The notes beneath the pieces were generated by a model. It worked only from the letters and a program-made list of their open reading frames with translations, was not told the origin of the DNA and did not search any database. A stretch of 64,000 nucleotides of DNA from an uncultured archaeon (GTDB lineage: Archaea > Asgardarchaeota > Lokiarchaeia > Sigyniarchaeales > SOKP01), in the NCBI GenBank assembly GCA_964447495.1, contig CAYUTF010000001.1:96001-160000 (forward strand), read 5' to 3'. The translations under genes and the position numbers were made by a program. Below, in pieces: positions 13,096 through 54,342 of this stretch; positions within the stretch are counted from its first letter, which is position 1, and every line of letters begins with the position of its first letter.

Positions 13096-14939
13096 TGCAA
13101 CGACCTGGAGGTCCAATGAGAGGGCGTGGTCCGATGGGAGCAACGGGTGTTGCTCGTGAAAAGGCTACCAACTTTCGTGGGACGATGGGTAAACTATTCC
13201 GTTATATGGGTAGGTATAAAGGGTTAGTATTGCTGGTCTTCATATTTGCTGCAGCATCTACAACTGCAAACATTATCGGTCCAAAGATTCTCGGAACTGC
13301 CACAACAACTCTTGTTACTGGCGTGATAGCCCAAATTAGTGGTACAGGCGTAATTGATTTTGCTAGTATTGGCGTAATTTTACTTGAAGTACTAGCAATA
13401 TACGTTATCTCAGCAATTTTTGGCTTTATACAAGGCTGGATTATGGCGGGTGTTTCAACTAATATTGCTTATCGATTCCGTCGGGATATTGCGGAAAAGA
13501 TCGACCACTTACCACTTAAATATTTTGATGGGACTACTTACGGAGAAGTACTTTCTCGTATTACAAATGATGTCGACACAATCAACCAGTCATTAAGCCA
13601 AAGTCTCACGCAGATTATTACATCAGTAGTAACAATCGTGGGAGTCTTGATCATGATGCTTAGTATAAGTTGGGTCATGACATTGGTAGCGCTTGCGATG
13701 CTTCCATTGTCATTATTACTAATGGGTGTAGTTATTGGTCGCTCACAGAAGTACTTTAAACAACAACAAGATAATTTAGGGCATGTCAACGGTCATGTCG
13801 AAGAAATGTATGGTGGTCATATTGTGATAAAGGCATTCAACGGGGAAGAAAAAAGCGTTGAAAAATTCAACAAATTTAATAAAAATTGGTATACAGGCTC
13901 TTGGAAAGCAAATTTCTTCTCAGGATTGATGATACCAATCATGTTATTCATTGGAAATTTGGGATATGTGGCTGTTACAATTTTCGGCGCATGGTTGGCA
14001 ATTCAAAACGTAATTACAATAGGGGATATTCAAGCATTCATTCAGTATGTCCGCTCGTTCACCCAACCTCTCAGCCAAATTGCTAATATTTCCAATGTTC
14101 TTCAGCAAACAGCTGCTGCTGCTGAACGCGTATTTAAATTTCTTGAAGAAGAGGAAGAGACTCCCGATGTAACTAACCCTATTAAGCTAGAACGCGTCAA
14201 AGGATTAGTGGAATTCCGAAACGTGCATTTTGGATATGATCCTAATAAGATTATCATCCAAAACTTCTCCGCTATAGCCCAACCTGGTCAAAAGGTTGCG
14301 ATAGTTGGACCAACAGGAGCAGGAAAAACCACTATTGTCAAACTACTTATGCGTTTCTACGATCTGAATAGCGGAACAATTTTAGTAGATGGTCATGACA
14401 CTCGAGATTTCACACGAGCAGATCTTCGCCGTATGTTTGGAATGGTGTTGCAAGATACTTGGCTTTATAATGATTCCATAATGAATAATATTAGATATAG
14501 CAATCAAGATGCAACTGACGAGGAAGTGCTTGCGGCTGCAAGTATTGCCCACGTTGACCCTTTCGTCAAAATGTTACCCGATGGATATAATATGGTGATC
14601 AATGAGGAAATAACAAATGTCTCTCAGGGTCAAATGCAGTTATTAACGATTGCCCGTGCCATCCTTGCGAATCCACCAATACTGATCCTTGATGAAGCTA
14701 CCAGTTCCGTCGATACGCATACGGAGATCTTGATACAAGAAGCCATGGATGCACTAATGCAGAATAGAACTAGTTTCGTTATAGCTCATCGTTTATCCAC
14801 TATTCGTAATGCAGATCTGATCCTCGTAATGCGGGATGGAGACATTGTAGAGCAAGGCAACCATAATGAGTTGCTAGCACGGGGTGGTTACTACGCTGAG
14901 TTATACAATAGTCAATTTGAAAAGTTGAATAATGACTAA
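13092..14939 (+). CDS. Heterodimeric ABC exporter subunit (TMD+NBD, consensus catalytic residues)
   Basis: GPTGAGKT, VSQGQ, ILDEATSSVD, IAHRLSTI; ATGA overlap with partner; TM288-like. Confidence 0.93.
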   Translation: MMQRPGGPMRGRGPMGATGVAREKATNFRGTMGKLFRYMGRYKGLVLLVFIFAAASTTANIIGPKILGTATTTLVTGVIAQISGTGVIDFASIGVILLEVLAIYVISAIFGFIQGWIMAGVSTNIAYRFRRDIAEKIDHLPLKYFDGTTYGEVLSRITNDVDTINQSLSQSLTQIITSVVTIVGVLIMMLSISWVMTLVALAMLPLSLLLMGVVIGRSQKYFKQQQDNLGHVNGHVEEMYGGHIVIKAFNGEEKSVEKFNKFNKNWYTGSWKANFFSGLMIPIMLFIGNLGYVAVTIFGAWLAIQNVITIGDIQAFIQYVRSFTQPLSQIANISNVLQQTAAAAERVFKFLEEEEETPDVTNPIKLERVKGLVEFRNVHFGYDPNKIIIQNFSAIAQPGQKVAIVGPTGAGKTTIVKLLMRFYDLNSGTILVDGHDTRDFTRADLRRMFGMVLQDTWLYNDSIMNNIRYSNQDATDEEVLAAASIAHVDPFVKMLPDGYNMVINEEITNVSQGQMQLLTIARAILANPPILILDEATSSVDTHTEILIQEAMDALMQNRTSFVIAHRLSTIRNADLILVMRDGDIVEQGNHNELLARGGYYAELYNSQFEKLNND

Positions 14940-40637: not shown

Positions 40638-41597
40638 TTATGTTAAAGGATTTTTTGCGTGTAAGTTAAATCCTTCAGATTTATCTATTATTTTATGTGT
40701 CCTTTTATCATATTTTATTTGAAATCCGTATCCTCTGCCTCGATAATAACTTTCAGCAAGAAGAATTGTGATTTCCATTATAGATTCCGATTCTTTTATA
40801 AAGGGAATTTTATATTCCCATTTGGAAAAAAATGCATAATTCTGTGCGATTATCAATGCTTCTTCAAACAATTTGGCTTGAAGGGAATTCTTTTCAAGGG
40901 TAGTTTCGATGAGAAGGTTAGAATGTGAATTAAATGAAAGTTTTTTGATAAGTTTAAAATTTGTTTGTTGTTCATGAAAATCAGTAGTATAAATTAAATA
41001 AGAAAAAGGATTTATTCCAGGAATAAAGTGAGAGTTTTTTGGTAATTTAAACTGAACCCATATTTTAATGATAATTCGATATGAAAAATATAGGATATAA
41101 AAAGCTACCAAGAAAAAAATAAGCTTAGAAAAATAGAGCGCAGGCCATACAAAGAAAATGATAAAGTAAAACAAAATCATTCCGCCCGAAACTAATGCTA
41201 AATTAAAGTTAATTGCTCTATCGATAAAGAATCTTACTTTTTTTTTATAAAATGGATAAAAGAGTGGAATTTTTGAAGCGCATAAAGCATCTAAAGACAA
41301 ATGTAGACTATAGAATAGAAAACCAACTATCCATGCTAATAGAAAGGGCTCATTTGTGATAAATGAGAAAATTACGCCTGTTAAACCAGACACAAGAAAA
41401 GCAAAGAAATAGGAATGGGAAATACCCTTATGAGAAAGAAGGGGAGTATTCTTTATTCTTTTAAGAGGATATAAGAATATATCGAAATCAGCTAACACAG
41501 CCATTACTATCGCATACATTACAATGCTGAAACTAAATGAATTTAGTGTGAATAGACTTAGAAATATCCCTAATAAAAAATGCGTAAAAAAATCCAT
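40638..41597 (-). CDS. YdjM-family membrane metal-dependent hydrolase
   Basis: MDFFTH, LADFD, HKGISHS, HLSLD, PLFYPF. Confidence 0.85.
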   Translation of the reverse strand: MDFFTHFLLGIFLSLFTLNSFSFSIVMYAIVMAVLADFDIFLYPLKRIKNTPLLSHKGISHSYFFAFLVSGLTGVIFSFITNEPFLLAWIVGFLFYSLHLSLDALCASKIPLFYPFYKKKVRFFIDRAINFNLALVSGGMILFYFIIFFVWPALYFSKLIFFLVAFYILYFSYRIIIKIWVQFKLPKNSHFIPGINPFSYLIYTTDFHEQQTNFKLIKKLSFNSHSNLLIETTLEKNSLQAKLFEEALIIAQNYAFFSKWEYKIPFIKESESIMEITILLAESYYRGRGYGFQIKYDKRTHKIIDKSEGFNLHAKNPLT

Positions 41598-41884: not shown

Positions 41885-42253
41885 TCAACAGCCTACATCT
41901 GGTTGTAATTGAATTTCACTCTCGGGATATACGTTGAATTCGATATTATCCCTAATTGGATTGAATTTCTGCATAATACCATTCTCATCTGGGGCATATG
42001 CATATATTCCAACATCTTCATATATCGAATTCGTTTCAAAATTTACTAATAGTTGCATATAATTATGAATATACCCCTCATTAATCGGAAATATTGTCGT
42101 CTCTGAATTCATTGCTTCGATTTTATCGACCATTGCTAAGCATTCTAAAAAGGAGGCATCCTCTTTTATGTTGATCGTATACTTCTTCCCTTTTTGAAGT
42201 CCCTTTATTGGGAGACTTATTTCAAATTTAATTGTTTTCATATTTTCCCTCAT
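41885..42253 (-). CDS. Ubiquitin-like (MoaD/Urm1 beta-grasp) protein with C-terminal Gly-Cys
   Basis: Beta-grasp pattern KTIKFEI...YTINIKEDASFLECLAMV...VYPESEIQLQPDVGC; fold inferred by eye. Confidence 0.65.
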   Translation of the reverse strand: MRENMKTIKFEISLPIKGLQKGKKYTINIKEDASFLECLAMVDKIEAMNSETTIFPINEGYIHNYMQLLVNFETNSIYEDVGIYAYAPDENGIMQKFNPIRDNIEFNVYPESEIQLQPDVGC

Positions 42254-42276: not shown

Positions 42277-42597
42277 TTAGCTACAGCAAGAACCGTTCTT
42301 TTTTGTTATTCTTTGTCGAGCATCCCAAAGGCATCCGCATCCTTTTTGTTCAAACATACTTATAGCACCTACAGGACAATTTCTCTTACATGCACTACAC
42401 TCCGTACATAATGCTGGATCACTAATTCTATATTTATTATTAGCTTTTTTTTGCGGAAGTCCAAATGGACATACTTCGGCACAAACCCCACATCCGATGC
42501 AAATTGATGTTATTATTGAAATGCGGATATTGTTTAATGAAGGGATGCTACAACAGGAATTTTTTTCTAATTGCTTTATATTTATCTTTTCAATCAT
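42277..42597 (-). CDS. hgcB: HgcB-like 2x[4Fe-4S] ferredoxin with extra Cys clusters
   Basis: CIGCGVCAEVCP, CTECSACKRNCP, GCGC, C-terminal SCCS; immediately after the hgcA-like gene. Confidence 0.8.
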   Translation of the reverse strand: MIEKINIKQLEKNSCCSIPSLNNIRISIITSICIGCGVCAEVCPFGLPQKKANNKYRISDPALCTECSACKRNCPVGAISMFEQKGCGCLWDARQRITKKNGSCCS

Positions 42598-42622: not shown

Positions 42623-44305
42623 TTAAATTAATAAAATGCTAATTAATGAAGATATGACGCTAATAACCAATAAAATTTTATTAACTTTTGTAAATAAACC
42701 ATATTCTTCTTGAATTTCTCTTGGACTGGTACTCATTGAATATCCACTAAAGGACATCGTAGAAAAAAAGGAAATCCAAAATATCATAGGCGTATTTAAT
42801 AAAATATATGCGAAAGGCTTTTGTAATATCCAAAAAGTTCCTCCTAAGATTATAATGGTAATGATACCAAACACTAATCCTTTTAAGATAAATTTTCTGG
42901 TGAAATTTGAAAGGGGAAATAAAAATGAAATAATCAAATTTGAAGTAATAATCCATAAAATGAAATCTATCACCCAATATAGTTTATTGAACCAAGGGAA
43001 TACTACTAAAAAAATAATTAGTGATGCAATAATAGGATAAAAAAATACTTTTCTTAATAAGAAAGTGGTATGTGTTATGAAGGCTCTTGTTCTATGGAAT
43101 ATATTAAATTTTGCAAGCTTCATATTTGCTGGTTTTTGAACGGGCTTATTTTTTAGATATTCTGGTATATATTTTGACCATATAGGTCCATATTTAGCTT
43201 TGAATGGAAAATTTTTTGATTTCTTTGATAGATTTGGCATTGAAACGCCTCCTGCGGAAAGTTGAGGAAGCAATAATAGTTCATTTTTTGTATAATTTTG
43301 AACTCCCGTCGCTTCAATGGCTTCAAGAACCTGTTGGTTGCCGAAATCATTACCTCTAGCAGCACACCATACATTAATACCATTTGTATCAATAACTAAG
43401 ACCCATACATCAATATCTTTTAAATCTCTCATTACCTTAATGTATGTAAAATCATAGTTAGCAGTGACAATTATAGGTGATTTCCTTGTTGGATTTCCAG
43501 ATTGATATATTCCTGGTTCAATAGGAACTCTATCGATTTGACCAGTGAATATACACCTAAATATTCTAAATTGAGATAAAATACCTTTATATTTTTTCAT
43601 TTTGGGTTGATAGTAGCCAGGTTCTTCTTTTCCTTCATTATTAAATTTCACTAATTCAATTACTTGAATCGAATTATGCTTCCAAGTCTTTTTATCAGTA
43701 ATCTTGAACCCAATCGGGTTTAAATAGTTAAAAAAATATTTATTGAGTTGTGTATTTTTCAAGCGATATCTTCGGATTTTCTTTTTATATCGCCACCTTC
43801 TTAGACTAAAACCTATTTTCCAAATCCCTAAGGGCATAAATTCGGTAGCAATTATTAAACGCCCTCCTTTTTTTAGGATTTTCCACACATTCCGCAGAAA
43901 AATTTGTTGTTCTAAAGGCCTAAGTTCAGAAAGCATAAAAGTACTGATTACTAAATCCTGTGAACTGTGAAAGACAGTCAAGTTATTAAAAGAGCCAATC
44001 TGATAAAGTAGTTTTCCTGCTATATCACTTGGATAATTAGCCATCGCATAATTAATCATTTGAAAATTTTTATCAATTGCTATTACATTTTTTCCTTTTT
44101 GTTTCGCAATTCTAGCGGCTAATGTACCTGGACCGCAGCCTATCTCAAAAATTGAATTATCATTATTAATACGGTCTATTATCCAATCATTTATCTCAAG
44201 GTTTATTCCTTTAGTTAGATTTGTGAACTCTTGCTCGTAAGTTTCAGGTTCCTCTTCTAACTTTTTCATATAAGTTACTGCCATAATTCTCAGATCATAA
44301 TTCAT
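42623..44305 (-). CDS. hgcA: SAM-dependent methyltransferase fused to HgcA-like corrinoid membrane protein
   Basis: N-terminal EIGCGPG / IAID / KILKKGG; then IEPGIY, SPIIVTANY, DTNGINVWCAARG, LPQL, about 5 TM helices and MSFSGYSMSTS. Start may be ATG 44284. Confidence 0.88.
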   Translation of the reverse strand: MNYDLRIMAVTYMKKLEEEPETYEQEFTNLTKGINLEINDWIIDRINNDNSIFEIGCGPGTLAARIAKQKGKNVIAIDKNFQMINYAMANYPSDIAGKLLYQIGSFNNLTVFHSSQDLVISTFMLSELRPLEQQIFLRNVWKILKKGGRLIIATEFMPLGIWKIGFSLRRWRYKKKIRRYRLKNTQLNKYFFNYLNPIGFKITDKKTWKHNSIQVIELVKFNNEGKEEPGYYQPKMKKYKGILSQFRIFRCIFTGQIDRVPIEPGIYQSGNPTRKSPIIVTANYDFTYIKVMRDLKDIDVWVLVIDTNGINVWCAARGNDFGNQQVLEAIEATGVQNYTKNELLLLPQLSAGGVSMPNLSKKSKNFPFKAKYGPIWSKYIPEYLKNKPVQKPANMKLAKFNIFHRTRAFITHTTFLLRKVFFYPIIASLIIFLVVFPWFNKLYWVIDFILWIITSNLIISFLFPLSNFTRKFILKGLVFGIITIIILGGTFWILQKPFAYILLNTPMIFWISFFSTMSFSGYSMSTSPREIQEEYGLFTKVNKILLVISVISSLISILLI

Positions 44306-45335
44306 TGCTTTGATTTTGTGATTTCCAAAATCCTTTCTTCATTAAATATCTCCCTAAGTATACTATAGAGAGCATTACCGGGACTTCCCAGAAGAGACCC
44401 ATGGTTGTTCCTAATGCTGCCACAGATCCAATCCCATACATTGCAATAGCAGTTGCGATTGCAATCTCAAAATGACTCGATGAACCGATAATTACTGTGA
44501 TTATTGCTTCTCTATATCGTAATTTGAATACTTTAGTTATGATTACATTATATAATACAACAATAACAAATCCAAGCAATAGAGGTGCTGAAACCAATAA
44601 TAGGAGGTCAGGGTTAGTAATTAGGACATTCCCATTCAATGAAAAGAGTACGATTAAGGTTACTAATAATGCGCCAATAGATACCTTTCCCACAAATGGA
44701 CGATAGGAGTTATTAAACCACTCATCTCCCTTAGTTGATATAATTAATCTCTTAGAGATTATACCTAATAGTAATGGAATACCGATAAAAACTATAAGAG
44801 ATATTAGAAGCAACATAACGTCAATAGGGATATTTTGAATACCCGTGAGTAATGATACCATGCCCACATATAAAAAGATAATAGTTATGGTATTTAAACT
44901 GGTATTAACTACATTCTGTTCTTGATTTCCACGAGCCATCCACCCCCATACAAGTACCATCGCAGTACATGGGGAACTTGATAATAAAATAACTGCAACA
45001 GATAATTGTTCATTTCCTTGTAAAAATAGCTTCACCATGGCAAGCCCTACAAAGGGGGCAACTAACCAATTAGAAACTAATGTTAAAATTATTGGTTTTG
45101 GATTTTTACCTAACTTTTTTAACTCGGATGCTTGTAGATTGAGCATCGCAGGATACATCATTAAAAATAAACATATGCCTATAGGAATGGATATTTGTCC
45201 AATTTTTAATGAATCAATAGCTTGACTTATTTGTGGTACGAGTTGAGAAAGTAAAATTCCAATGAAGATACATAAGGCAACCCATAATGGGAGAAATTTT
45301 TCGAAATAACCAATTTTTTTCTCATCCTTACTCAT
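44295..45335 (-). CDS. acr3: Acr3-family arsenite efflux transporter
   Basis: FEKFLPLWV, MMYP, NWLVAPF, PCTAMVLVW, SSHFEIAIA, EVPVM. Confidence 0.93.
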   Translation of the reverse strand: MSKDEKKIGYFEKFLPLWVALCIFIGILLSQLVPQISQAIDSLKIGQISIPIGICLFLMMYPAMLNLQASELKKLGKNPKPIILTLVSNWLVAPFVGLAMVKLFLQGNEQLSVAVILLSSSPCTAMVLVWGWMARGNQEQNVVNTSLNTITIIFLYVGMVSLLTGIQNIPIDVMLLLISLIVFIGIPLLLGIISKRLIISTKGDEWFNNSYRPFVGKVSIGALLVTLIVLFSLNGNVLITNPDLLLLVSAPLLLGFVIVVLYNVIITKVFKLRYREAIITVIIGSSSHFEIAIATAIAMYGIGSVAALGTTMGLFWEVPVMLSIVYLGRYLMKKGFWKSQNQSNEL

Positions 45336-45340
45336 TATTC

Positions 45341-45394
45341 ATCAAGGATTTCAAATCTTTGATCATATATAAACTTAATCGACATATATCGATT
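45341..45394. promoter_or_regulatory. acr3 promoter with candidate ArsR operators
   Basis: ATCAAGGATT-TCA-AATCTTTGAT (45341-45363) and AATCGA-N6-TCGATT (45377-45394) flank a minus-strand TTTATATA box (45366-45373). Confidence 0.6.
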
Positions 45395-45484: not shown

Positions 45485-45874
45485 ATGAAACCCCAGAGAA
45501 TTCCTGAAATTAAAAAAATGTTGTGCTCTTGTCAAGAATGTTACGAAACAAACGGATATTTCACACAATTACATGATTTAGGGAAATCTTTAAATCAGAA
45601 TGAGAATTTAAATAGACTCATTATGTTTGCTTCAGCTTTATCTTCAAAAGACCGATTGATTATCCTTAGGACTTTAAAGGGAAGAGACAAATGTGTATGT
45701 GAATTAGAAGTAGTGTTAAACAAATCTCAATCTACTATTTCACATCATATTGGGAAGCTTTTAACTGCTGGCTTAATTGAAGGGTATAAAAAAGGGAACT
45801 TCACTTATTATCACCTTTTAGAGGACAATTTAAAAAGTCAAATAGAAATATTAAATAAAGAGCTTCAAGTTTAA
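45485..45874 (+). CDS. arsR: ArsR/SmtB metalloregulator
   Basis: ALSSKDRLIIL, KCVCEL (alpha3 Cys pair), SQSTISHH, N-terminal CSCQEC; divergent from acr3. Confidence 0.92.
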   Translation: MKPQRIPEIKKMLCSCQECYETNGYFTQLHDLGKSLNQNENLNRLIMFASALSSKDRLIILRTLKGRDKCVCELEVVLNKSQSTISHHIGKLLTAGLIEGYKKGNFTYYHLLEDNLKSQIEILNKELQV

Positions 45875-45919: not shown

Positions 45920-48175
45920 TTAGACTGGTTTTAATTTTTGCTTAGATTCAATATTTTTACTAATTGCCTCTTTTGTGAAAAGAAAAGGAATATACTTTCC
46001 CGTGACCCATAATTTGATTAAATCTTTATAGTGTTTATGAAAGGGAAGACCAGATTGTCCACCTGGAAGAGCTCCAATGGAATTATCCCAGTTGGATAGA
46101 TCATGAATTTGGCGATAAGAGGGTCCAGATATCACGTTAAAATTATCAGAAGGATCATATGAACCGGGATTTAGAGTGTTTCCATCTCCTCCTAATTTAA
46201 AAGGACCAGCATTTAAAATTTTAGCTTCTTTATTAGCACTGGAAAAAGGGTGTTCTAGTGTGAATTTGTGAAGATTCCCCCATGCCCACTTTTCAGGTTT
46301 AGAACCATATGAAGTAGTTAAATATTCTATGGTATTTTCTAATGCATTAAGAAGAATTTTTGAAATTTTATCCTCATTATTCATAAAATATAAGTCCCAA
46401 ATACGTTTTAAGTCGAATGGCCTGCTGCCGGCGAACATTTGGAAAACATTTTTACCAATTAATGGTTCAAGTATAGCTTTTTGAGTTTTATGATGCCAAA
46501 TCTTAAAAAGAGTACCAGCGATGCTATTTTTAGTTAAAAAATAGTCCCAATTTTCTAAATAGGATATGATTTCTCTATAATTATTTAGGTTTTTATTTTT
46601 TTTTAAGAATGTGAGCATAATTGGTAATAATTCTGCTGCTTCTTCCGTATATCTATCAAGTTGAAAAACTTTAAAATCTTCAATGGAGAAGATGGTTTTT
46701 GATTGGAGTAATTTCTTTAATCTTACTTGTCTATAGGGAGATATTTGGTCTTCACCAATTAATAATCCATTTGGAGATTTTTCTTCATTATAATTCGCGG
46801 TATATACAAATCCACATTCTGGATTATAGAGAGAAAATAGTTGATCAAATGATGAAATTCCTTTCCAATCATATTTTTCATCATTTCCTTGATTTATGAC
46901 TGCTCCATTTCCATATTTTCTTACCGGAATTTTACCACCGTGTTGATGCCCTATATTACCTGCAACATCACCGTAAATAAAGTTTTGTGGATTTATAGTT
47001 ATATATGCTAAAGCTTCTCGAAATTCTTGCCAATTTGAAGCGACATTTACCCCCTTAAACCCTTTTAAATTATTGATAAGGTTAGCATCAGAGCTTGACC
47101 ATTTTAAAGCATATTTACCCGGAATAAAAAATTGAAATATTCGATCATATCCTTCAAAAAAATTAATTACAGGACCAAATTTGCTTATTAATATAGGATA
47201 AGTTATTGGTTTTGATTTTCCTTTCAAATAAATGATTTCTTCTCTAATTTCAAAATCAATCCAATTACCATTATATTTATATTGATGTTCATTTTCAGGA
47301 TTTATTTCTAATTTAAATAAATCTGTTGTATCCGCCATTACATTTGTAAGCCCCCAGGCAATTTTATCGTTATGACCTATTATAACTGCTGGCGCACCGG
47401 GAAGAGAGGTACCAATTACATTAAGACCGGGACAATTCAAATGGATTAAAAACCATAAAGCTGGATTTGTTAAGGGAAGATGTGGATCGTTAGCTAGTAA
47501 TACTGATTTTGATCTTGACTTTTTTGGGCTTACTGCCCAAGCATTACTACCTAAAGATTCATTAACATTCATTTCTGAATCAATTGGAATAATTTTATTG
47601 GCAGTTTCTTTTCCAAGTTTAGATAAGATATGTTCTCGCAGGATTTCATAGGGATAATTCCAACTGCTTAGTGACCATTCAATCATGCTAATAATTTTAA
47701 AAGTATCTTCAAATTTCCATTCCTTAGGCTTAAAATTTAGTATATGAAATTCGATTGGTAGATTTTCTTGCACATCTTCAATTCGTTTATTCACACCTTT
47801 AACATATGCATCCATGAATTTATAATCTTCAGAATTCTTATTCTTTTCAATATTTTGAGCACATTTTTGAGCAATTTGATATAAACTAATTTCTCTATAA
47901 TGTTTATCACTCAACAAAGAGCTTTCTCCTGTGATTTCAGAAAGAGTTCCTGATACTAATCTTTTGAAGGTTTCCATTTGCCATAATCTATGACTTGCAT
48001 GGATATAACCTTGAGTGAAATAGAGATCATATATATTTTCGGCAAAAATGTGAGGAATACCCCATTTATCCCATAAAATTTCCACATTTGCTTTTAATCC
48101 ATTAATTTTTTCTTCTTCTTGCATGGATGGAAAAGATTTTTTAGCGATTTCTAATAATTCTTCCATAAATTTCAC
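45920..48175 (-). CDS. Penicillin acylase family Ntn-hydrolase (S45)
   Basis: WDKWGIPHI, RLWQM, GSNAWAV, LANDPHL, PGGQSG. Confidence 0.92.
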   Translation of the reverse strand: MKFMEELLEIAKKSFPSMQEEEKINGLKANVEILWDKWGIPHIFAENIYDLYFTQGYIHASHRLWQMETFKRLVSGTLSEITGESSLLSDKHYREISLYQIAQKCAQNIEKNKNSEDYKFMDAYVKGVNKRIEDVQENLPIEFHILNFKPKEWKFEDTFKIISMIEWSLSSWNYPYEILREHILSKLGKETANKIIPIDSEMNVNESLGSNAWAVSPKKSRSKSVLLANDPHLPLTNPALWFLIHLNCPGLNVIGTSLPGAPAVIIGHNDKIAWGLTNVMADTTDLFKLEINPENEHQYKYNGNWIDFEIREEIIYLKGKSKPITYPILISKFGPVINFFEGYDRIFQFFIPGKYALKWSSSDANLINNLKGFKGVNVASNWQEFREALAYITINPQNFIYGDVAGNIGHQHGGKIPVRKYGNGAVINQGNDEKYDWKGISSFDQLFSLYNPECGFVYTANYNEEKSPNGLLIGEDQISPYRQVRLKKLLQSKTIFSIEDFKVFQLDRYTEEAAELLPIMLTFLKKNKNLNNYREIISYLENWDYFLTKNSIAGTLFKIWHHKTQKAILEPLIGKNVFQMFAGSRPFDLKRIWDLYFMNNEDKISKILLNALENTIEYLTTSYGSKPEKWAWGNLHKFTLEHPFSSANKEAKILNAGPFKLGGDGNTLNPGSYDPSDNFNVISGPSYRQIHDLSNWDNSIGALPGGQSGLPFHKHYKDLIKLWVTGKYIPFLFTKEAISKNIESKQKLKPV

Positions 48176-48372
48176 GAGTATTTTGTAAATTTAAAATGTG
48201 TAATGAATTATATTATGATTTTTTGTAATTTAAAGATCTTTTATAGTATAATTAAATTTAAAGAATTTTATCTAAATAAAGCAATAAACAAATGATATTT
48301 GATTCCTTTCAATCGCTAAATATATATGCCTTAATTACCATGTAGATAATATTCAAAATAATTCCGAAGATA

Positions 48373-49647
48373 TTGTTGAATTTCATTATGGATGACGATA
48401 ATACAAATTTTGACAGTACACAGTTTCTTAAAGTTATCAATTCAATAGAGATTCGAATTGAAAGAGAAGATATATTTTATCGGGAGAAATATAATGACAT
48501 TATGAATTATTTTAAGGTAATGTTAACCGAAAATACCAACGCTTTAATCAATGATTACTCAAAAATAATTAATCTAAAGGGCGTACTATTAATCAACATT
48601 GGTCAAAATAGTGATATCAATGATTTCTTAAAACTAATATGCAAAAACTATTACCTAGACTTTATTGAATTAAATTATGAAAAAGTTTATTTTAATCAAG
48701 AAGTTTTCCTACAAAATTTTAATGCGATTATGGAAAATATCATAAGTATAGAAACTAATAATAAAAAACCTAAAGATGATAATGATAATTCCTTAAATAT
48801 GGAATATGAATCTCATATAAAAAAATTAATAATAATTGATGAACACAAGCTGAAATTAAGGTCAAATAAAGAAATAAATCTCTTGGAAGTTTTTATAAAT
48901 TCTAAATTTAGTGAGAGAAATTTTATTGAGAGTAAAACCATATTAATTTGGATTAATGATTTAATGGAAAAGGTAGCTCGAAATTCGCAAAAGATATTCA
49001 ATATTTTTGATCTTTTTATTAACATTCCTGCTTTAGACCAAGTCGAAAGAGAAGCTGTTTTAAGGCATTTTTCCGAAGTATTTCCAAAGATTGTATTTGA
49101 TCTTGATATGATGGTTAATTATACTAAATTTTGGGAAGTAAATGACATCAAAAATTTAATAAAATTAGGAATTTTTAAGCATTTTCTTAAATCTGAATTG
49201 AATGAAAAGTCAAATGAAATTACTGATTTACTAATTGAGTTAATTGAGTCAAGGGAATTCATTCCTTCAATAAATTTTGATACAAAAAATAATCAATTAA
49301 TCATAAGTGAAAATCATTTAATCCAAAAGCAAAATAAAGGTAATATAAAAATGATGGATATGAAATATGTTGAAGAAATTAACACATATCTCGAAGAAAT
49401 AAAAGGTGAAACCATTTCGGATTTTATGCTTAGCCAATTATATGAAAATGCAGCTTCAAAAAATTATAAAGAATTACAAATAATTATAGAGAAAATTAAT
49501 AAAGGGGAAATTCTCGAAGAAAATGATAGGTTGATTTTAGCAAGATATCCCTTTATCTTAAATGAAAATCCTAATAAAGCTTTAATAGCCCTTGAAAAAG
49601 CAAAAAAAACAATTAGTCGAATAAGTCAGATATTTAGAAAAGTATAA
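48373..49647 (+). CDS. Hypothetical protein with degenerate AAA+ domain
   Basis: KGVLLINIGQNSD (no P-loop), LIIIDE, FDLFINIPALDQVEREAVL, DLDMMVNYT...NDIKNL follow the classic AAA order. Confidence 0.65.
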   Translation: MLNFIMDDDNTNFDSTQFLKVINSIEIRIEREDIFYREKYNDIMNYFKVMLTENTNALINDYSKIINLKGVLLINIGQNSDINDFLKLICKNYYLDFIELNYEKVYFNQEVFLQNFNAIMENIISIETNNKKPKDDNDNSLNMEYESHIKKLIIIDEHKLKLRSNKEINLLEVFINSKFSERNFIESKTILIWINDLMEKVARNSQKIFNIFDLFINIPALDQVEREAVLRHFSEVFPKIVFDLDMMVNYTKFWEVNDIKNLIKLGIFKHFLKSELNEKSNEITDLLIELIESREFIPSINFDTKNNQLIISENHLIQKQNKGNIKMMDMKYVEEINTYLEEIKGETISDFMLSQLYENAASKNYKELQIIIEKINKGEILEENDRLILARYPFILNENPNKALIALEKAKKTISRISQIFRKV

Positions 49648-49689
49648 AATGTAATTTTTCAACTTTAAGCTTTTAAATTTTAAAATTAC

Positions 49690-52600
49690 CTGAAAAGGGG
49701 GATCAAAGTTTCGCAAGTCAAAAATACAACATTTATTAAAAAATTAATCTTAGAAAACTTTTTATCCTTCCAAAGAGATGAAATTGATTTTTCAAACAAT
49801 TCCCAATTCGGATTTCCAAGATTAATTTTAATAATTGGACCAAATTGGTCTGGTAAAACATCGATATTTCAAGCAATTAAATTTGTTCTAGGAAGCAATG
49901 AAAGAGATGAACGATATAAAAAATGGTCAGATTTTATTAGGAATGGTCAAGATCATGCGATGGTAGAAATCGAAATTCAAAATCAAGATGAATTAATAAA
50001 TATAAAAAGGTATGTTCTCAGAGATAAATCCCCCTATTTTGAAATCCAAAAGCATAAAGATTCAAAATTTAAGAAAGTACAAGCGAATACAGTTCAAAAA
50101 ATTATAAGCGATTTGAAGTTTAATCCTGATAATCACTTTGCTTTTGTAAGTCAAGGTAAAATCGATAGTATTAAAAATTTAAAACCTTTTGAATTGAGCA
50201 ATTTTTTAGAAGAGGGAATTGGGCTCAAAGGATTACGAGAAGAGATTTTAGAAGAAAAAATTTCAATAAATAATCTTAATCAAGATTTTCAATCAATTTC
50301 TACAAAAAAGAATGCTTTAAAACTTAATTTAGAGCTTCTCACACCAAAGTTAAGAAGACTTGAAGAAAAAAAAACACTTTTAGATCAAAAAAAAAACCTA
50401 AATGATGAGTTATTATGGGCAAATAAAGAAAACCTTCAAAAGAAGATTAAAAGTCTACGCATTGAAATTCATCAAATCGAGGATTTACTTAATTCAATAA
50501 ATCATGAGTTGGAGAGTTATAAAAAAATAATAGATCGCAAAGAAGAAGAGATTAATGAGATCATAGAAAAAATAAATCAATTTTCAAAGAAATTGGGAGA
50601 ATTAGAATATAAGAAAAAGGATTTCATAAATCAAATTCAAAATTGGCAACAAGAAAAAGTAGCATTTAAGCAAGAATTAGATAATATGGCAGAGATTATC
50701 TCTCAAGAGAAAATTGAATTAGAAAAATATGTAAATAAGAAGGAACACATTAATAAAGAGATTAAAATACTTGATAATGAGAAAGTTTTACATTCTAACC
50801 ATATTGATGAACTTATTAAGGAACAAAAGAATCTAAGCATAAAGATAAACGAAAACAGAGATTTTTTAGAGAAGTATAACAAGTTAGTATTTGAAAAGGA
50901 GAAGCATTCTAGAAAAATTGAAGATATCCTGACGAGAAAAGAAGATATTAATCATGATATTGAAGACATCTTTCAGAGTTTACAAGACATTGATCATAAG
51001 CTAAAAAAAAATAAATGGTTTTTAGAAAATCCGTCTAAAGATTTGTTGAAACAATTAGATCAAGATTTAAAGAAATTTACAAGGAATGTTTTTGAGCTTG
51101 AGGGAAAAATAGAACAATTAAACTATAAAAAGTCTGAAAATTTAGAAAAATTCAAATTTCTTCAAAAATCCATTCAAGAGAGGCGTATTATACTACCTTC
51201 GAGTATCATTTTATTAAAAGAAGAAATAAAAAAGCGAGATTTGGATAGCAAAGTAAAAGGTCCGATCATTGAATATCTAAAATATGATGATACTCTAAGT
51301 TATGCTATCGAATCTGTATTAGGTGAAAGATTACTTTATAGTTTTGTAGTAAATGATTGGGATACTCTTAGTTTATTGAATCGCCTAAAAAATAAGTTTA
51401 ATGCATATTGTAATATTTATATTACAAAAAAGCTCATAATTTCTTCTTATCCTCAGTTTTCTGCTGAGGGGCTTATTGGTTATTTGGTTGATTTAATTCA
51501 CATTATAAGTGAGGATATTGATATTAAAAAAGTGATTTATTCAAAAGTTAAAAACTGTGTTGTTGTCAATAACTACTATTCAGGCAAGGAACTTTATACT
51601 AAAATGGATTATAAGGGCAAATGTGTGACATTGAAAGGAGAACAGATAGTCTCATACAAATATGTTTATGAAACACCGTATCTGAAAAAACTTAAAGGTT
51701 TTCTTAGTACTGGAACGCAGAAGGAACAAGTAAGAATTTTAGAAAGTGAGATTGAAGCTCTAAATGAAAAAATCAGTAATTTAAGGATCGATTTAACTCA
51801 TCTGGATAATTATCAAAAGGAATTATATAATAAAAAAGACTCGTTTAATGATTTACTTTATAATTTCAATCAAAAACAGCGCCTTACTACAAAAAAAAAT
51901 GAATTATACTCTTTATTATATTCATTAGAAAATGATCAAGAAAACTGTAAAAAAGAAATCACCAATTTGAATGATTTGATTAAAGATTTTAAGGCTCAGA
52001 GAGATCCTGAGTTTTTCAATTGGAATGAAAGATTAAAAGAAATTCCGATTCAAATAAATGATTTAAATGATAAATTAAAAATCATTGGCAAGAAATCAAA
52101 TGAAAATAGAGAAATTTTCGATGAACTAAATAAAAAAATTATTAATTTCCAAAATAAAATAATGCTTAAATCATCTGAATATGAAAACAAGCAAAGACAT
52201 TTTCGTAAAGCTGATAAAAAAGCGTTTTTAATTTATCAAAATTTAGAGCATGTTGAAGAAGAAATTCAAAATGTGGATAAGTCTGTTTTGGAACTGCAAG
52301 AAGTAAAAAAGAGATTTCAAGAAGAAAAATTTGATGTAGAAAAGAACACACTTCATTTTAAAATAAAATTTGAACAAGAAAATTTCAAACTAGATTCTCT
52401 AAATCAAGATTTAATTATTAAAAAGCAAAATTTAGAACGTGTTAACTCTGAAATTGATCCTTTATTTTCTTCTCTTGGAACACAAATTAGGCCGATTGAA
52501 GATATAGAGGGAGATTTAGAAAAAATTGAAAGAGATTTAATAAAATATATTGATATTGATGATACGATTTTAGTTGAAAAGGAAGAAATCCTTAATAATT

Positions 52601-53157
52601 TAAATCAAATTAGTAAAAATCAAAATGATTTAGAAAGAGATATAAATGCCGCTATAGATGCTGAAAAAAAAATGGAACACACATATTATGATAAGTTTAG
52701 TGAAATATTGGTTGAATTACAAGAAAAGATAAATCATAAATTTAAAACTGCAAACATTAAGGCATATTGTTCACTCGAATTAATGGGCAATTTTGAAGAG
52801 CTAGGAATAAATATTAGAGCAGCAACGTCAAAAGACCAATTAAAATCATGTACTGCCTTAAGTGGGGGTCAGATTTCTATGATATCTATTTGTTTAATCC
52901 TTTCTTTGCAAGAAATTAAGCCTTCCCCATTATGTATGTTTGATGAAGCAGGAATGTTTTTAGATGATAAAAATTCAGAAGCTTCTTATCAGATGATTAA
53001 ATCTACACTTGAACAAAATCCAATCCAATTATTCATGTTTTTACCCAAATCATCTAATCATTTGTTTCTATTAGCGGATAAATTAATAGGAGTCGCTAGA
53101 GTGGGAAAAAATGAAGTATCAACAATATTTAACCCAAAAATTATTAGGGGAGATTGA
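49690..53157 (+). CDS. smc: SMC-family ATPase, SMC5/6-like; true start upstream of the ORF-track start
   Basis: Frame is open from 49684: FIKKLILENFLSF...IIGPNWSGKTSI...DFIRNG, Q-loop FVSQGKI, coiled coils, hinge, LSGGQ, MFDEAGMFLD. Exact start uncertain. Confidence 0.88.
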   Translation: MKRGIKVSQVKNTTFIKKLILENFLSFQRDEIDFSNNSQFGFPRLILIIGPNWSGKTSIFQAIKFVLGSNERDERYKKWSDFIRNGQDHAMVEIEIQNQDELINIKRYVLRDKSPYFEIQKHKDSKFKKVQANTVQKIISDLKFNPDNHFAFVSQGKIDSIKNLKPFELSNFLEEGIGLKGLREEILEEKISINNLNQDFQSISTKKNALKLNLELLTPKLRRLEEKKTLLDQKKNLNDELLWANKENLQKKIKSLRIEIHQIEDLLNSINHELESYKKIIDRKEEEINEIIEKINQFSKKLGELEYKKKDFINQIQNWQQEKVAFKQELDNMAEIISQEKIELEKYVNKKEHINKEIKILDNEKVLHSNHIDELIKEQKNLSIKINENRDFLEKYNKLVFEKEKHSRKIEDILTRKEDINHDIEDIFQSLQDIDHKLKKNKWFLENPSKDLLKQLDQDLKKFTRNVFELEGKIEQLNYKKSENLEKFKFLQKSIQERRIILPSSIILLKEEIKKRDLDSKVKGPIIEYLKYDDTLSYAIESVLGERLLYSFVVNDWDTLSLLNRLKNKFNAYCNIYITKKLIISSYPQFSAEGLIGYLVDLIHIISEDIDIKKVIYSKVKNCVVVNNYYSGKELYTKMDYKGKCVTLKGEQIVSYKYVYETPYLKKLKGFLSTGTQKEQVRILESEIEALNEKISNLRIDLTHLDNYQKELYNKKDSFNDLLYNFNQKQRLTTKKNELYSLLYSLENDQENCKKEITNLNDLIKDFKAQRDPEFFNWNERLKEIPIQINDLNDKLKIIGKKSNENREIFDELNKKIINFQNKIMLKSSEYENKQRHFRKADKKAFLIYQNLEHVEEEIQNVDKSVLELQEVKKRFQEEKFDVEKNTLHFKIKFEQENFKLDSLNQDLIIKKQNLERVNSEIDPLFSSLGTQIRPIEDIEGDLEKIERDLIKYIDIDDTILVEKEEILNNLNQISKNQNDLERDINAAIDAEKKMEHTYYDKFSEILVELQEKINHKFKTANIKAYCSLELMGNFEELGINIRAATSKDQLKSCTALSGGQISMISICLILSLQEIKPSPLCMFDEAGMFLDDKNSEASYQMIKSTLEQNPIQLFMFLPKSSNHLFLLADKLIGVARVGKNEVSTIFNPKIIRGD

Positions 53158-53808
53158 ATGCCAGATTCCATGATCTTACCAGAAGAGATTCATAATCAGC
53201 TAATTAAAGTAAAGGAAGATATCTTATCAGGTAAGATCTATTTATTAGAATTAGAATTAAACCCTATCTTTCAAAGCATCAAAGATTCAGTCAGTAAGAA
53301 CAACATTTTTCAATATTCTCAACTTTTCAAAGAAACTTACCTGATTTTAAATCAAAAGTTTGAAGAATTAAAAAGCCTGCTTATGAGGATGGATAATGAG
53401 CAGAAATTTATAAAATACTTAGAAACAAATCCTAAGGATTTAGAAATTGCGGTTTTATATGAAGGGTGTTGGAATGGCTCTCTACAGGTTGAATCCTTAT
53501 CATTTGAATATTTACAAATGAGTAGAAATAGATTATTAAATTTTCTTAAAGAACCAATAAATATAAAGGAGTTATCAAGATTAGATTTTAAGGATCAATT
53601 TTTTTTAGAAATACCAAAACTAAAATTTACCGAAAAAATGAATGAATATCTCCAGACAATAATAGATAAGCTACCTTGTCAATTTGGAGATATTTTTGAA
53701 AATGAGAAAGATCAAATGTTATTATATGAACATTTTATTTTTCTTTTGCATCTTCTTCAATTAGGAAAGATTAAATATCAAAAAGAAACAAAAACATTAT
53801 ATATATGA
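53158..53808 (+). CDS. Kleisin (ScpA-like) subunit
   Basis: Directly abuts SMC; C-terminal winged helix FIFLLHLLQLGKIKY resembles ScpA FLALLEL...GKI. Confidence 0.7.
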   Translation: MPDSMILPEEIHNQLIKVKEDILSGKIYLLELELNPIFQSIKDSVSKNNIFQYSQLFKETYLILNQKFEELKSLLMRMDNEQKFIKYLETNPKDLEIAVLYEGCWNGSLQVESLSFEYLQMSRNRLLNFLKEPINIKELSRLDFKDQFFLEIPKLKFTEKMNEYLQTIIDKLPCQFGDIFENEKDQMLLYEHFIFLLHLLQLGKIKYQKETKTLYI

Positions 53809-53811
53809 GGA

Positions 53812-54342
53812 GTGAATGATATGAATGAGCTTTCAATAATAATGCATTTATTAAGTAGACGTATTAATAAGCATCAGATTGGTGCAACAGAAGATGAGAT
53901 TTGCGAAATATTAAATATTTCTGGGAAAAATCAATCACTTTTATTTAACCAATTAATGATAAATCTATCAAAATACATTGAGATATTGGGGTTAATTATA
54001 AAATTTAATTCAATCGATTCTCATTGGTTTATATCCTTTGAAGCTGAAATGTCTGATATAATAAAAGCTAATCCCTTTGAAAATAAGCCAAGGCTAGCAG
54101 CTACTTTGTTTTGTGTTATAATAAGTTGCATAACCAATTTTGGAAAAACCACAATTTCAGAAATAGTAAAATTAAGGAAAAAGAAGGGGATTCTTGTAGA
54201 TTTAAGAGAATTAGAAAATTATGGATATATTATATTAAATAAAGATTCTGGAGAAATAAAGCTTACACCCTTAATAGGATATCAATTAGATATAAATAAA
54301 TTATTTATAAATTTGGCTTTAAAATTAAGAGAAGAAAATTAG
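53812..54342 (+). CDS. Kite (ScpB/Nse1/Nse3-like tandem winged helix) subunit
   Basis: 176 aa with two WH-like halves (NLSKYIEILGLII; LAATL...DLRELENYGYI...IKLTP); third gene of the SMC operon. Confidence 0.65.
   Translation: MNDMNELSIIMHLLSRRINKHQIGATEDEICEILNISGKNQSLLFNQLMINLSKYIEILGLIIKFNSIDSHWFISFEAEMSDIIKANPFENKPRLAATLFCVIISCITNFGKTTISEIVKLRKKKGILVDLRELENYGYIILNKDSGEIKLTPLIGYQLDINKLFINLALKLREEN

Follow-up and report, generated by a model that had tools for sequence, protein, structure and literature searches.

A CpaM-like methyltransferase fused to an HgcA-like corrinoid protein behind an ACR3-type permease gene in an Asgard archaeon

We analyzed a 64,000-nt stretch of DNA (the window) from an uncultured archaeon of the Sigyniarchaeales, Asgardarchaeota (assembly GCA_964447495.1, contig CAYUTF010000001.1, positions 96,001 to 160,000), and concentrated on one gene of its reverse strand (42623..44305, –). 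The open reading frame (ORF), domain matches and an AlphaFold2 (AF2) model identify this gene as a fusion of a CpaM-like class I S-adenosylmethionine (SAM) methyltransferase with an HgcA-like corrinoid domain and a membrane domain. The fusion is a real, widely conserved Asgard-archaeal gene; its architecture, conservation, family placement and gene order were observed directly, as were intact SAM and cysteine motifs. Judged by sequence, it represents a new architectural variant and a clade of its own within a known kind of system: its modules are those of the CpaM and HgcAB-like pair, its working would be closest to that of HgcAB, and it falls short of the curated thresholds and defining motifs of HgcA, HgcB, HgcAB-like and CpaM. 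On balance, we lean toward the view that the protein is a membrane-anchored corrinoid methyltransferase with a built-in CpaM-type methyl-donor module, which would relay a methyl group from SAM to Co(I) and on to a soft metal(loid).

The ORF begins with ATG and runs for 560 codons without an internal stop, in window DNA of ∼30% G+C. Chance can hardly account for an open frame of this length at this base composition that also has hundreds of homologues over its full length. The true start is probably M8 (window position 44284), giving 553 aa, because homologue alignments begin at residue 8, the copy stored in the database (P0001) has 553 aa, and a relative has a stop directly ahead of the equivalent Met. 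Residue numbers given here are those of the 560-aa ORF. The methyltransferase domain (residues 8–225; 43631..44284, –), recognized by its match to NCBIfam CpaM (NF043040) and its class I fold, carries SAM motif I EIGCGPG (54–60) and D78; an insert at 156–184 is basic and has low AF2 confidence. A linker (226–257; 43535..43630, –) contains a helix in the AF2 secondary structure (242–253) and Cys251, which is kept in 117 of 121 family members. The corrinoid-binding domain (258–395; 43121..43534, –) is homologous to HgcA, to HgcAB-like proteins and to the C-terminal domain of the corrinoid iron–sulfur protein (CFeSP), and includes the cap-helix motif NVWCAARG (311–318; 43352..43375, –) with the presumed Co-ligating Cys314. 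The membrane domain (396–560; 42626..43120, –) is predicted to form six long helices and carries the C-terminal motif SFSGYSMSTS (518–527; 42725-42754, –).

Pfam finds Methyltransf_25 at residues 52–148 (E 8.7e-13) and CdhD at 242–351 (E 4.8e-16). The AF2 model, built on 76 family members (mean predicted local distance difference test score, pLDDT, 78.8; predicted template modelling score 0.79), shows a Rossmann-type domain to about residue 220, the linker helix, an alpha/beta domain at about 258–395, and six helices within 402–559 (402–420, 422–435, 443–465, 472–493, 498–520 and 528–559). With the whole model as query, Foldseek ranks the published integrative model of HgcAB first (9a0b_A, E 8.7e-11). 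Among chains of known structure, those nearest in sequence belong to a generic SAM methyltransferase and to the CFeSP large subunit (9fzy_F, E 1e-7 over residues 239–348). An earlier note, made from the letters of the window, had described an uninterrupted 560-aa frame with a Rossmann methyltransferase, a corrinoid domain and a transmembrane bundle, in which the Co-ligating Cys is kept and the two motifs read NVWCAARG and SFSGYSMSTS. Except for the start, which is probably M8, this description is borne out.

To follow the family, a word-indexed protein search was used, which gave 461 proteins at E <= 0.001, 120 of them listed. All 120 listed are 541–578 aa long and contain both the methyltransferase and the CdhD Pfam domains, with 58–66% identity to the window protein (besides the window's own copy). 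In their source records they are called nothing more specific than 'methyltransferase domain-containing protein' or 'UbiE', and they come from metagenome-assembled genomes (MAGs) of Lokiarchaeota, Promethearchaeota, Hermod-, Hod-, Odin- and Heimdallarchaeota. Of 121 close members, 119 have the cap NVWCAARG, Cys314 is present in 121/121, and the C-terminal motif takes the form S[FL]SGY[TS]M[AS]TS across the same 121. From this alignment, the AARG cap is a family signature and not a one-off change. We found 28 fusion loci in independent species-representative MAGs. Of 400 genomes scanned from the phylum at E <= 1e-30, 165 had a match, including 102 of the 134 genomes of the window's own family; other families of the phylum have full-length fusions at only 30–35% identity. 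Cluster look-ups added distant fusions from Hodarchaeales and Kariarchaeaceae, some named CpaM by NCBI, and from bacteria (Abyssubacteria, Anaerolineae). Selenocysteine was considered for seven relatives flagged for an in-frame stop and was rejected: six have no stop inside the aligned gene, and in the seventh a TAA lies just ahead of the start Met.

These data bear on the possibility, named in the earlier note as one that would refute its reading, that the fusion is an artefact of assembly (or of gene calling), or that its corrinoid part is a CdhE/AcsC-type subunit of the acetyl-CoA pathway. The Pfam corrinoid domain is indeed named CdhD, and most source sequences are metagenome-assembled. 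Yet the same single frame occurs in 120/120 listed clusters from several sources, among them contigs of 535 kb and 1.28 Mb, and full-length matches free of internal stops are present in many genomes of the phylum. As for CdhE, the genome has its own full copy on a separate contig (461.5 bits), whereas the fusion reaches 68.8 bits against the model for the CFeSP large subunit, the gamma subunit of acetyl-CoA decarbonylase/synthase (NF003195, cut-off 306), and does so with its C-terminal domain only. The fusion also has a Cys cap and a membrane domain, both absent from CdhE, and it branches with HgcA and HgcAB-like proteins. An artefact or a CdhE-type subunit is therefore exceedingly improbable.

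We next consider how the protein relates to HgcA, since the earlier note had called it full-length HgcA. Against HgcA_corrinoid (NF040863) it scores 172.5 bits, well below the cut-off of 275, with residues 262–556 aligned and the profile matched to position 322 of 325. Against HgcAB_like (NF043039) it scores 170.8 bits (cut-off 285), with profile positions 14–251 of 350 matched; the ferredoxin here is a separate gene. An exhaustive HMMER search with residues 240–560 gave 950 representatives at E <= 0.001, and 114 of the 150 listed were scanned with NCBIfam, 36 short entries being omitted. Among these 114, 88 pass as HgcA (all with at least 309 bits), 7 are HgcAB-like without a methyltransferase, 14 are methyltransferase–corrinoid fusions, and 5 are truncated or unclassified. 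The NCBIfam scan found a methyltransferase domain in none of the 88 true-HgcA representatives, and Pfam found none in the seven canonical HgcA representatives that have N-terminal extensions.

A quick maximum-likelihood tree (78 rows, 296 columns, short search, with the genome's own CdhE as a single long outgroup row) put the 45 true-HgcA rows in one clade with a long stem (SH-aLRT 100). The window protein lies outside, in a separate clade of 13 (SH-aLRT 98), all with the AARG cap. The sister of this clade is less settled: the free quick tree gives true HgcA (support 84), and the alternative with HgcAB-like rows is 6.1 log units better and is not rejected (p-AU 0.58). Exclusion of the window clade from true HgcA is the only firm result of the tree, and it agrees with the gap in bit scores.

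The cap tells a similar story. Its core, GINVWC, is identical to that of HgcA. True HgcA then reads AAGKGTFGT and the window clade AARG[NG][DN]FGN, with HgcAB-like proteins and other fusions being variable. At the last two cap positions, true HgcA has G in 45/45 and K in 43/45 rows; the window protein lacks this GK. SFSGYSMSTS aligns with NFTG[SA][TS]TFTS of true HgcA. The fusion thus shares with HgcA the cap-helix Cys, the presumed Co ligand, and a C-terminal multi-helix membrane domain, and departs from it in the NF040863 score, in the cap motif N[VI]WC[AS][AGS]GK, and in clade placement. By these comparisons the fusion is not a bona fide HgcA and belongs to a distinct, mostly Asgard-archaeal clade of the HgcA superfamily, so the name full-length HgcA does not hold as a statement of membership. 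The expectation that strict-motif hgcA screens would miss the gene fared better: its score is below the NCBIfam cut-off, and NVWCAARG is not among the six high-stringency cap motifs given in the available part of the hgcA consensus protocol (PMC10087281). That protocol, as far as its accessible text goes, would class the fusion as an 'hgcA-like gene of unknown capability'. In the accessible part of Lin et al. (PMC10083202), some Asgard sequences fall in a fused-HgcAB clade and 327 poorly aligned N-terminal columns were removed; the supplements of that study may hold members of the fusion family.

One alternative is that the fusion and its ferredoxin are a divergent but functional Hg(II)-methylating HgcAB pair, in which the methyltransferase domain is an accessory that speeds SAM use. 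This would fit the GINVWC core, the membrane domain with its aligned xFxGx[TS]xx[TS][SN] motif, the ferredoxin partner with a C-terminal CC, and the HgcAB model as top structural match, and SAM is the methyl donor of HgcAB in the part of PMC11588087 available. Set against these likenesses are the score of 172.5 bits where 275 is required and all 88 true HgcA have at least 309, the position outside the HgcA clade, the lack of the GK found in every accepted motif, and a ferredoxin that reads CTECSA instead of C(M/I)ECGA. Moreover, organisms with HgcA-like genes outside true HgcA made no methylmercury when tested, according to the accessible text of PMC10087281. We consider Hg(II) methylation an improbable function for the pair.

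The N-terminal domain matches CpaM with 120.1 bits (E 8.8e-35), over residues 11–217 and profile positions 3–213 of 216. It fails the cut-off of 180, yet it matches the profile near full length and is covalently joined to an HgcA-like corrinoid protein. CpaM is by far its best family (next family, E 1.6e-10). The name stands for 'corrinoid protein-associated methyltransferase', and NCBIfam labels the entry 'hypoth_equivalog'; evidently, the NCBI curators saw the corrinoid association when naming it. Among 26 methyltransferases of the genome that match CpaM, the window domain ranks second with 121.9 bits, and the third, with 72 bits, matches in the Rossmann core only (32–148). Elsewhere, 6 of 14 fused representatives pass the CpaM cut-off. 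Structurally, residues 7–223 adopt a class I fold (VIA-align, Z 20.1 to 1ve3_B, root-mean-square deviation 3.4 over 186 residues; many others at Z 17–19), with small-molecule C-, O- and N-methyltransferases such as Coq5, UbiG and ChlM as neighbours. The hallmarks of class I enzymes are in place: the EIGCGPG motif I and the acidic D78 after strand 2, with G56, G58, G60 and D78 invariant in 76 sequences. The lack of an ArsM-type Cys set, noted earlier, is confirmed. The only Cys in residues 1–225 is that of the GCGPG motif, and the fusion scores 21–40 bits against ArsM-type NCBIfam models with cut-offs of 240–575 (29.4 vs 263 for NF008823).

The same genome also has the modules in another arrangement. 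On contig C2 (78328-82110; locus L002), a stand-alone CpaM (ORF 761-1447) is followed by an HgcAB-like fusion (ORF 1444-2544), the stop of the former overlapping the start of the latter by 4 nt. The C2 CpaM is 228 aa long and passes its cut-off with 251.5 bits; the HgcAB-like protein, of 366 aa and with the cap GINVWCGACGDDF, passes its own of 285 with 355.3 bits. Identity of the window protein to this pair is 33% (N-domain to CpaM) and 38% (corrinoid domain to HgcAB-like). A gene of the deazaflavin-dependent nitroreductase family stands after the C2 pair. In a third arrangement, a 591-aa metagenomic protein (P0229), one of the 14 fused representatives, is a triple fusion of methyltransferase, HgcAB-like corrinoid/membrane part and ferredoxin, with which Pfam agrees. 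P0229 and its cluster members P0278-P0281 (585–591 aa) score 265.8 bits for CpaM and 381.1 for HgcAB_like, both over cut-off, and have a 2x[4Fe-4S] ferredoxin part.

Hence there are three orders of the modules: CpaM then a corrinoid–ferredoxin fusion, a CpaM–corrinoid fusion then a ferredoxin, and all three fused. Because the modules recur adjacent, fused and triple-fused, the methyltransferase and the corrinoid protein are likely to be functionally linked; the three arrangements form the classical pattern of proteins working together and support such a link at the level of gene architecture. A literature search on CpaM or 'corrinoid protein-associated methyltransferase' found no relevant paper, and a search for an N-terminal SAM-methyltransferase fusion of hgcA found no title or abstract describing one.

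The third module lies 25 nt downstream of the fusion gene. It encodes a 106-aa HgcB-like 2x[4Fe-4S] ferredoxin (42277..42597, –), recognized by HgcB_ferredoxin (NF040864) with 53.9 bits (cut-off 99). It has two CxxCxxCxxxCP motifs, a GCGCLWDAR motif and a C-terminal CC, and it reads CTECSA where HgcB has C(M/I)ECGA. Ferredoxins of related loci share the two CxxCxxCxxxCP motifs, all have GCGCLW[DN]AR, and at the C-terminus they carry either CC or CNC. The ferredoxin gene follows the fusion in 24 of 28 close loci, the other four stopping at or inside the fusion gene, and in 12/12 distant fusion loci.

A conserved gene for a 122-aa protein follows 23 nt further downstream (41885..42253, –). It is present in 13/28 loci and is probably the last gene of the operon. 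The protein has no Pfam or NCBIfam match, and Pfam gives nothing even at E 10 for 10 members. Its AF2 model (pLDDT 73.7; the sequence ends in QPDVGC) has no Foldseek match at E <= 0.001; only beta-grasp-type folds appear, among them transcobalamin (rank 27) and haptocorrin (rank 30). A weak Atlas lead to DUF4430, the transcobalamin-like C-terminal domain, scores 0.87, below the 0.9 mark. The protein might be a small corrinoid-handling protein.

Upstream, the operon opens with a gene of arsenic resistance. A 346-aa ACR3-type arsenite efflux permease (44295..45335, –; TIGR00832; Pfam SBF, 1.6e-37) has its stop 10 nt ahead of the fusion M8, and its gene overlaps the longer fusion ORF by 11 nt. 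It scores 274.9 bits against TIGR00832 acr3, just below the cut-off of 282.8, over profile positions 2–325 of 327. Facing it is a divergent gene for a 129-aa ArsR/SmtB-family regulator (45485..45874, +; HTH_5, 8.4e-13; NF033788, 64.4 bits, cut-off 55). This ArsR has an N-terminal CxCxxC and a CVCE in its DNA-binding (recognition) region, and all five Cys are kept in 17/17 aligned sequences. We take this pattern to resemble the thiolate-rich sites of As(III)- and Cd/Pb-sensing ArsR/SmtB members. The 149-nt arsR–acr3 intergenic region holds a palindrome, AATCGACAT/ATATCGATT (45377..45394, no strand), with 9-nt arms that are 89% complementary and no spacer; it is a candidate operator.

Across the 28 related loci, ACR3 is upstream of the fusion in 15, ArsR is present in 16, and one or both are present in 20. 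Five loci have ArsR without ACR3; an EamA transporter is present in the annotated locus, and flavin reductases lie downstream. At 4 of 12 distant loci, ∼130-aa upstream genes were tried as ArsR candidates on the strength of 32–41% identity in tblastn. They have no Pfam family at E 1e-6 and were not counted. Because the operon starts with ACR3 and faces a Cys-rich ArsR-type sensor, its expression is probably induced by As(III) or by another soft metal(loid) of similar kind. Published work points the same way for canonical hgcAB: in the parts of these reports available, acr3, arsC, arsM and arsR flank hgcAB (PMC7438021), and hgcAB expression is ArsR-controlled and responds to arsenic and to S-adenosylhomocysteine (SAH) (bioRxiv 10.1101/2022.10.17.512643). 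Expression was also looked for in a sediment metatranscriptome. One library (run X1) gave 11 short contigs, 90–99% alike, over parts of the acr3, fusion, ferredoxin and 122-aa genes, with the arsR part and several bins of the stretch lacking cover, gaps from which we draw no conclusion. This is a weak hint that the operon of the window or of a related strain is transcribed; DNA carry-over is possible.

What might the operon do? We infer each chemical step, the direction of methyl flow past SAM as donor, the acceptor and the regulation. The HgcB-like ferredoxin of the adjacent gene would reduce the Cys-ligated cobalt to Co(I). The Rossmann domain would bind SAM and present its methyl group to Co(I), yielding methyl-Co(III) and SAH. 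The methyl group would then pass to a thiophilic metal(loid) held on the Cys-rich tail of the ferredoxin (GCGC...CC), and the ferredoxin would reset the cobalt after the transfer. Methyl loading of cob(I)alamin by the methyltransferase domain is plausible from the fused, adjacent and triple-fused arrangements of the modules and from the published methylation of HgcAB by SAM. A different acceptor, which the earlier note had suggested from the altered cap, is plausible too and fits the arsR–acr3 context. SAM methyl groups are transferred to Co(I) in the reactivation of MetH and in class B radical SAM enzymes, by modules that are not of the class I Rossmann UbiE/CpaM type. To our knowledge, it would be a new pairing if a Rossmann methyltransferase acted on cobalt bound to a protein. 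In the available part of PMC11588087, SAM methylates purified HgcAB once it is reduced to Co(I), whereas methyl-tetrahydrofolate does not; its authors propose HgcB as the electron supplier, with its C-terminal Cys as metal handlers, and they also mention the MetH and class B radical SAM reactions.

Several observations weigh against such a relay or against arsenic as its acceptor. In the model, the cap helix (310–319) has a pLDDT <50. Eight of the 28 close loci, a subgroup at 55–58% identity, lack both ArsR and ACR3, and ACR3 is found in 0/12 distant fusion loci. Canonical HgcAB uses SAM without a Rossmann domain, by the accessible account in PMC11588087; because it needs none, the Rossmann domain of the fusion may have another task. 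Cultured organisms with fused HgcAB-like genes showed no Hg methylation (PMC10087281, in the part available), and because the tested relatives outside true HgcA did not methylate Hg, such relatives lack a demonstrated methyl acceptor. In the model bacterium ND132, As(III) resistance did not fall significantly when hgcAB was lost, and the accessible text does not report methylarsenic as a product (bioRxiv 10.1101/2022.10.17.512643). A complex prediction of residues 1–225 with residues 240–560 and SAM gave scores of 0.21 and 0.01 (mark 0.32); made without controls, it counts neither way.

If the Rossmann domain does have another task, the two halves may do separate chemistry. The corrinoid protein and ferredoxin would then use cobalt for reductive or other reactions (dehalogenation or demethylation, for example), and the methyltransferase would act on a small molecule or product rather than on cobalt. 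The fold neighbours of the N-domain are small-molecule methyltransferases (Coq5, UbiG, ChlM), consistent with this idea, as is the fact that canonical HgcAB takes the SAM methyl group unaided by such a domain (PMC11588087, in part). A 2026 preprint, as far as its available text goes, reports CCl4 dechlorination by expressed HgcAB (10.64898/2026.04.26.720869). However, the same methyltransferase family occurs with the same corrinoid family adjacent, fused and triple-fused, across archaea and bacteria, which is most simply explained by one pathway and one cofactor. None of the seven N-extended canonical HgcA has a methyltransferase in Pfam, so the domain tracks the non-canonical branches. The operon, furthermore, holds no other conserved enzyme that would supply a substrate. 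We think it rather unlikely that the halves act separately, and keep the SAM–cobalt relay as the preferred reading.

Comparison with known systems puts this relay in perspective. The locus resembles HgcA/HgcB (NF040863/NF040864) in its GINVWC cap with Cys ligand, helical membrane domain, xFxGx[TS]xx[TS][SN] motif and adjacent 2x[4Fe-4S] ferredoxin with CC; in both, ArsR and ars neighbours are frequent, and SAM is the known donor of HgcAB. It differs in the cap (AARG vs A[AG]GK), in scores below the cut-offs (172.5/275 and 53.9/99), in its separate clade, in the ferredoxin CTECSA and extra invariant GCGCLW, and in the N-terminal 220-aa methyltransferase, seen in none of 88 true HgcA. With the C2 CpaM and HgcAB-like pair (NF043040 and NF043039) it shares the same three tightly linked modules. 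Here, however, the methyltransferase is fused to the corrinoid part and the ferredoxin is separate, whereas in C2 the methyltransferase is separate and corrinoid and ferredoxin parts are fused; the scores fall short (170.8/285 and 120.1/180), and the caps differ (AARG vs GACG and others). No ars genes lie within the 3.8 kb read at the C2 locus. CFeSP (large subunit AcsC/CdhE) has a homologous corrinoid domain (9fzy_F, E 1e-7; NF003195, 68.8 bits), but the fusion lacks its N-terminal 4Fe-4S/TIM-barrel part and has the Cys ligand and membrane domain instead. CFeSP receives its methyl group from methyl-tetrahydrofolate or -pterin, and a TIM-barrel methyltransferase that is a separate protein makes the transfer.

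What the fusion has in common with ArsM is a class I SAM methyltransferase whose gene lies next to that of an arsenite pump, in an operon that would be under ArsR control. Unlike ArsM, the fusion lacks As(III)-binding Cys, and if arsenic is the acceptor the methyl group would go via cobalt. No ArsM over cut-off was found in the window's own genome, which is 98.4% complete (best match 68 bits vs 263); arsM and acr3 are reported from Asgardarchaeota in the accessible part of a cold-seep study (PMC10060404), whose supplementary tables may include sequences of the fusion type. Because of the ACR3 and Cys-rich ArsR operon in a genome without ArsM, As(III) is the leading candidate acceptor for the window's subgroup, a possibility we hold tentatively. 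A bolder proposal, which we rate as less likely still, is that the fusion is an ArsM-independent, ferredoxin-driven, cobalt-mediated methylase for arsenite or another soft metalloid. In this scheme, a Rossmann-loaded SAM methyl cation would pass to Co(I) and on to thiol-bound As(III) with inverted polarity, so that methylarsenite would form in anoxic sediments with no As(V) intermediate; a CpaM-type loader would be ancestral to the HgcA lineage, and canonical HgcA would have lost it.

Other features of the related loci and of the window are as follows. In the subgroup of eight loci (L022-L027, L021, L029), a divergent ∼195-aa gene with no Pfam family stands in the regulator's place (e.g. L024:3000-3587, –), and several of these loci have two ∼760-aa genes, also without a Pfam family, beyond it. 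At one distant fusion locus (L039:8033-9565, G067), a B12-binding radical SAM gene lies ∼1.3 kb from the fusion, and a nitroreductase-family gene lies on the opposite side, past the ferredoxin. In the window, a YdjM-family membrane protein (Pfam, 1.3e-17; 40638-41597, –) is encoded 287 nt downstream of the operon; this gene has the same position in 7/28 related loci, where branched-chain amino-acid ABC transporter genes follow. Positions 48000-54000 have a G+C of 0.24–0.26, compared with ∼0.30–0.32, and hold a 424-aa ORF; also inside this low-G+C stretch is an ORF of 1065 aa (49960-53157) with a high content of Lys, Glu and Asn. G+C peaks at 0.403 in 12001-14000, against a background of ∼0.30. 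Rfam and tRNA scans of the whole window found no RNA gene, rRNA or tRNA.

These results have consequences for gene surveys. Searches for hgcA that use the GK motif or curated cut-offs skip the fusion genes, and with looser hidden Markov model cut-offs they may be wrongly counted as hgcA. In Asgard genomes, a methyltransferase gene next to acr3 should be checked for the fusion before it is called arsM. For the family as a whole, the native role and the methyl source of HgcA are long-standing questions of mercury biogeochemistry, and the demonstration in 2024 that SAM is the donor for HgcAB was unexpected. The fused, adjacent and triple-fused members provide an independent genomic argument for a SAM–cobalt relay, and the fusion would be a convenient construct with which to test it. 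Lying behind an arsenite pump and under a Cys-rich ArsR, in an organism with no recognisable ArsM, the fusion makes the published link between HgcAB and arsenic testable in a new system.

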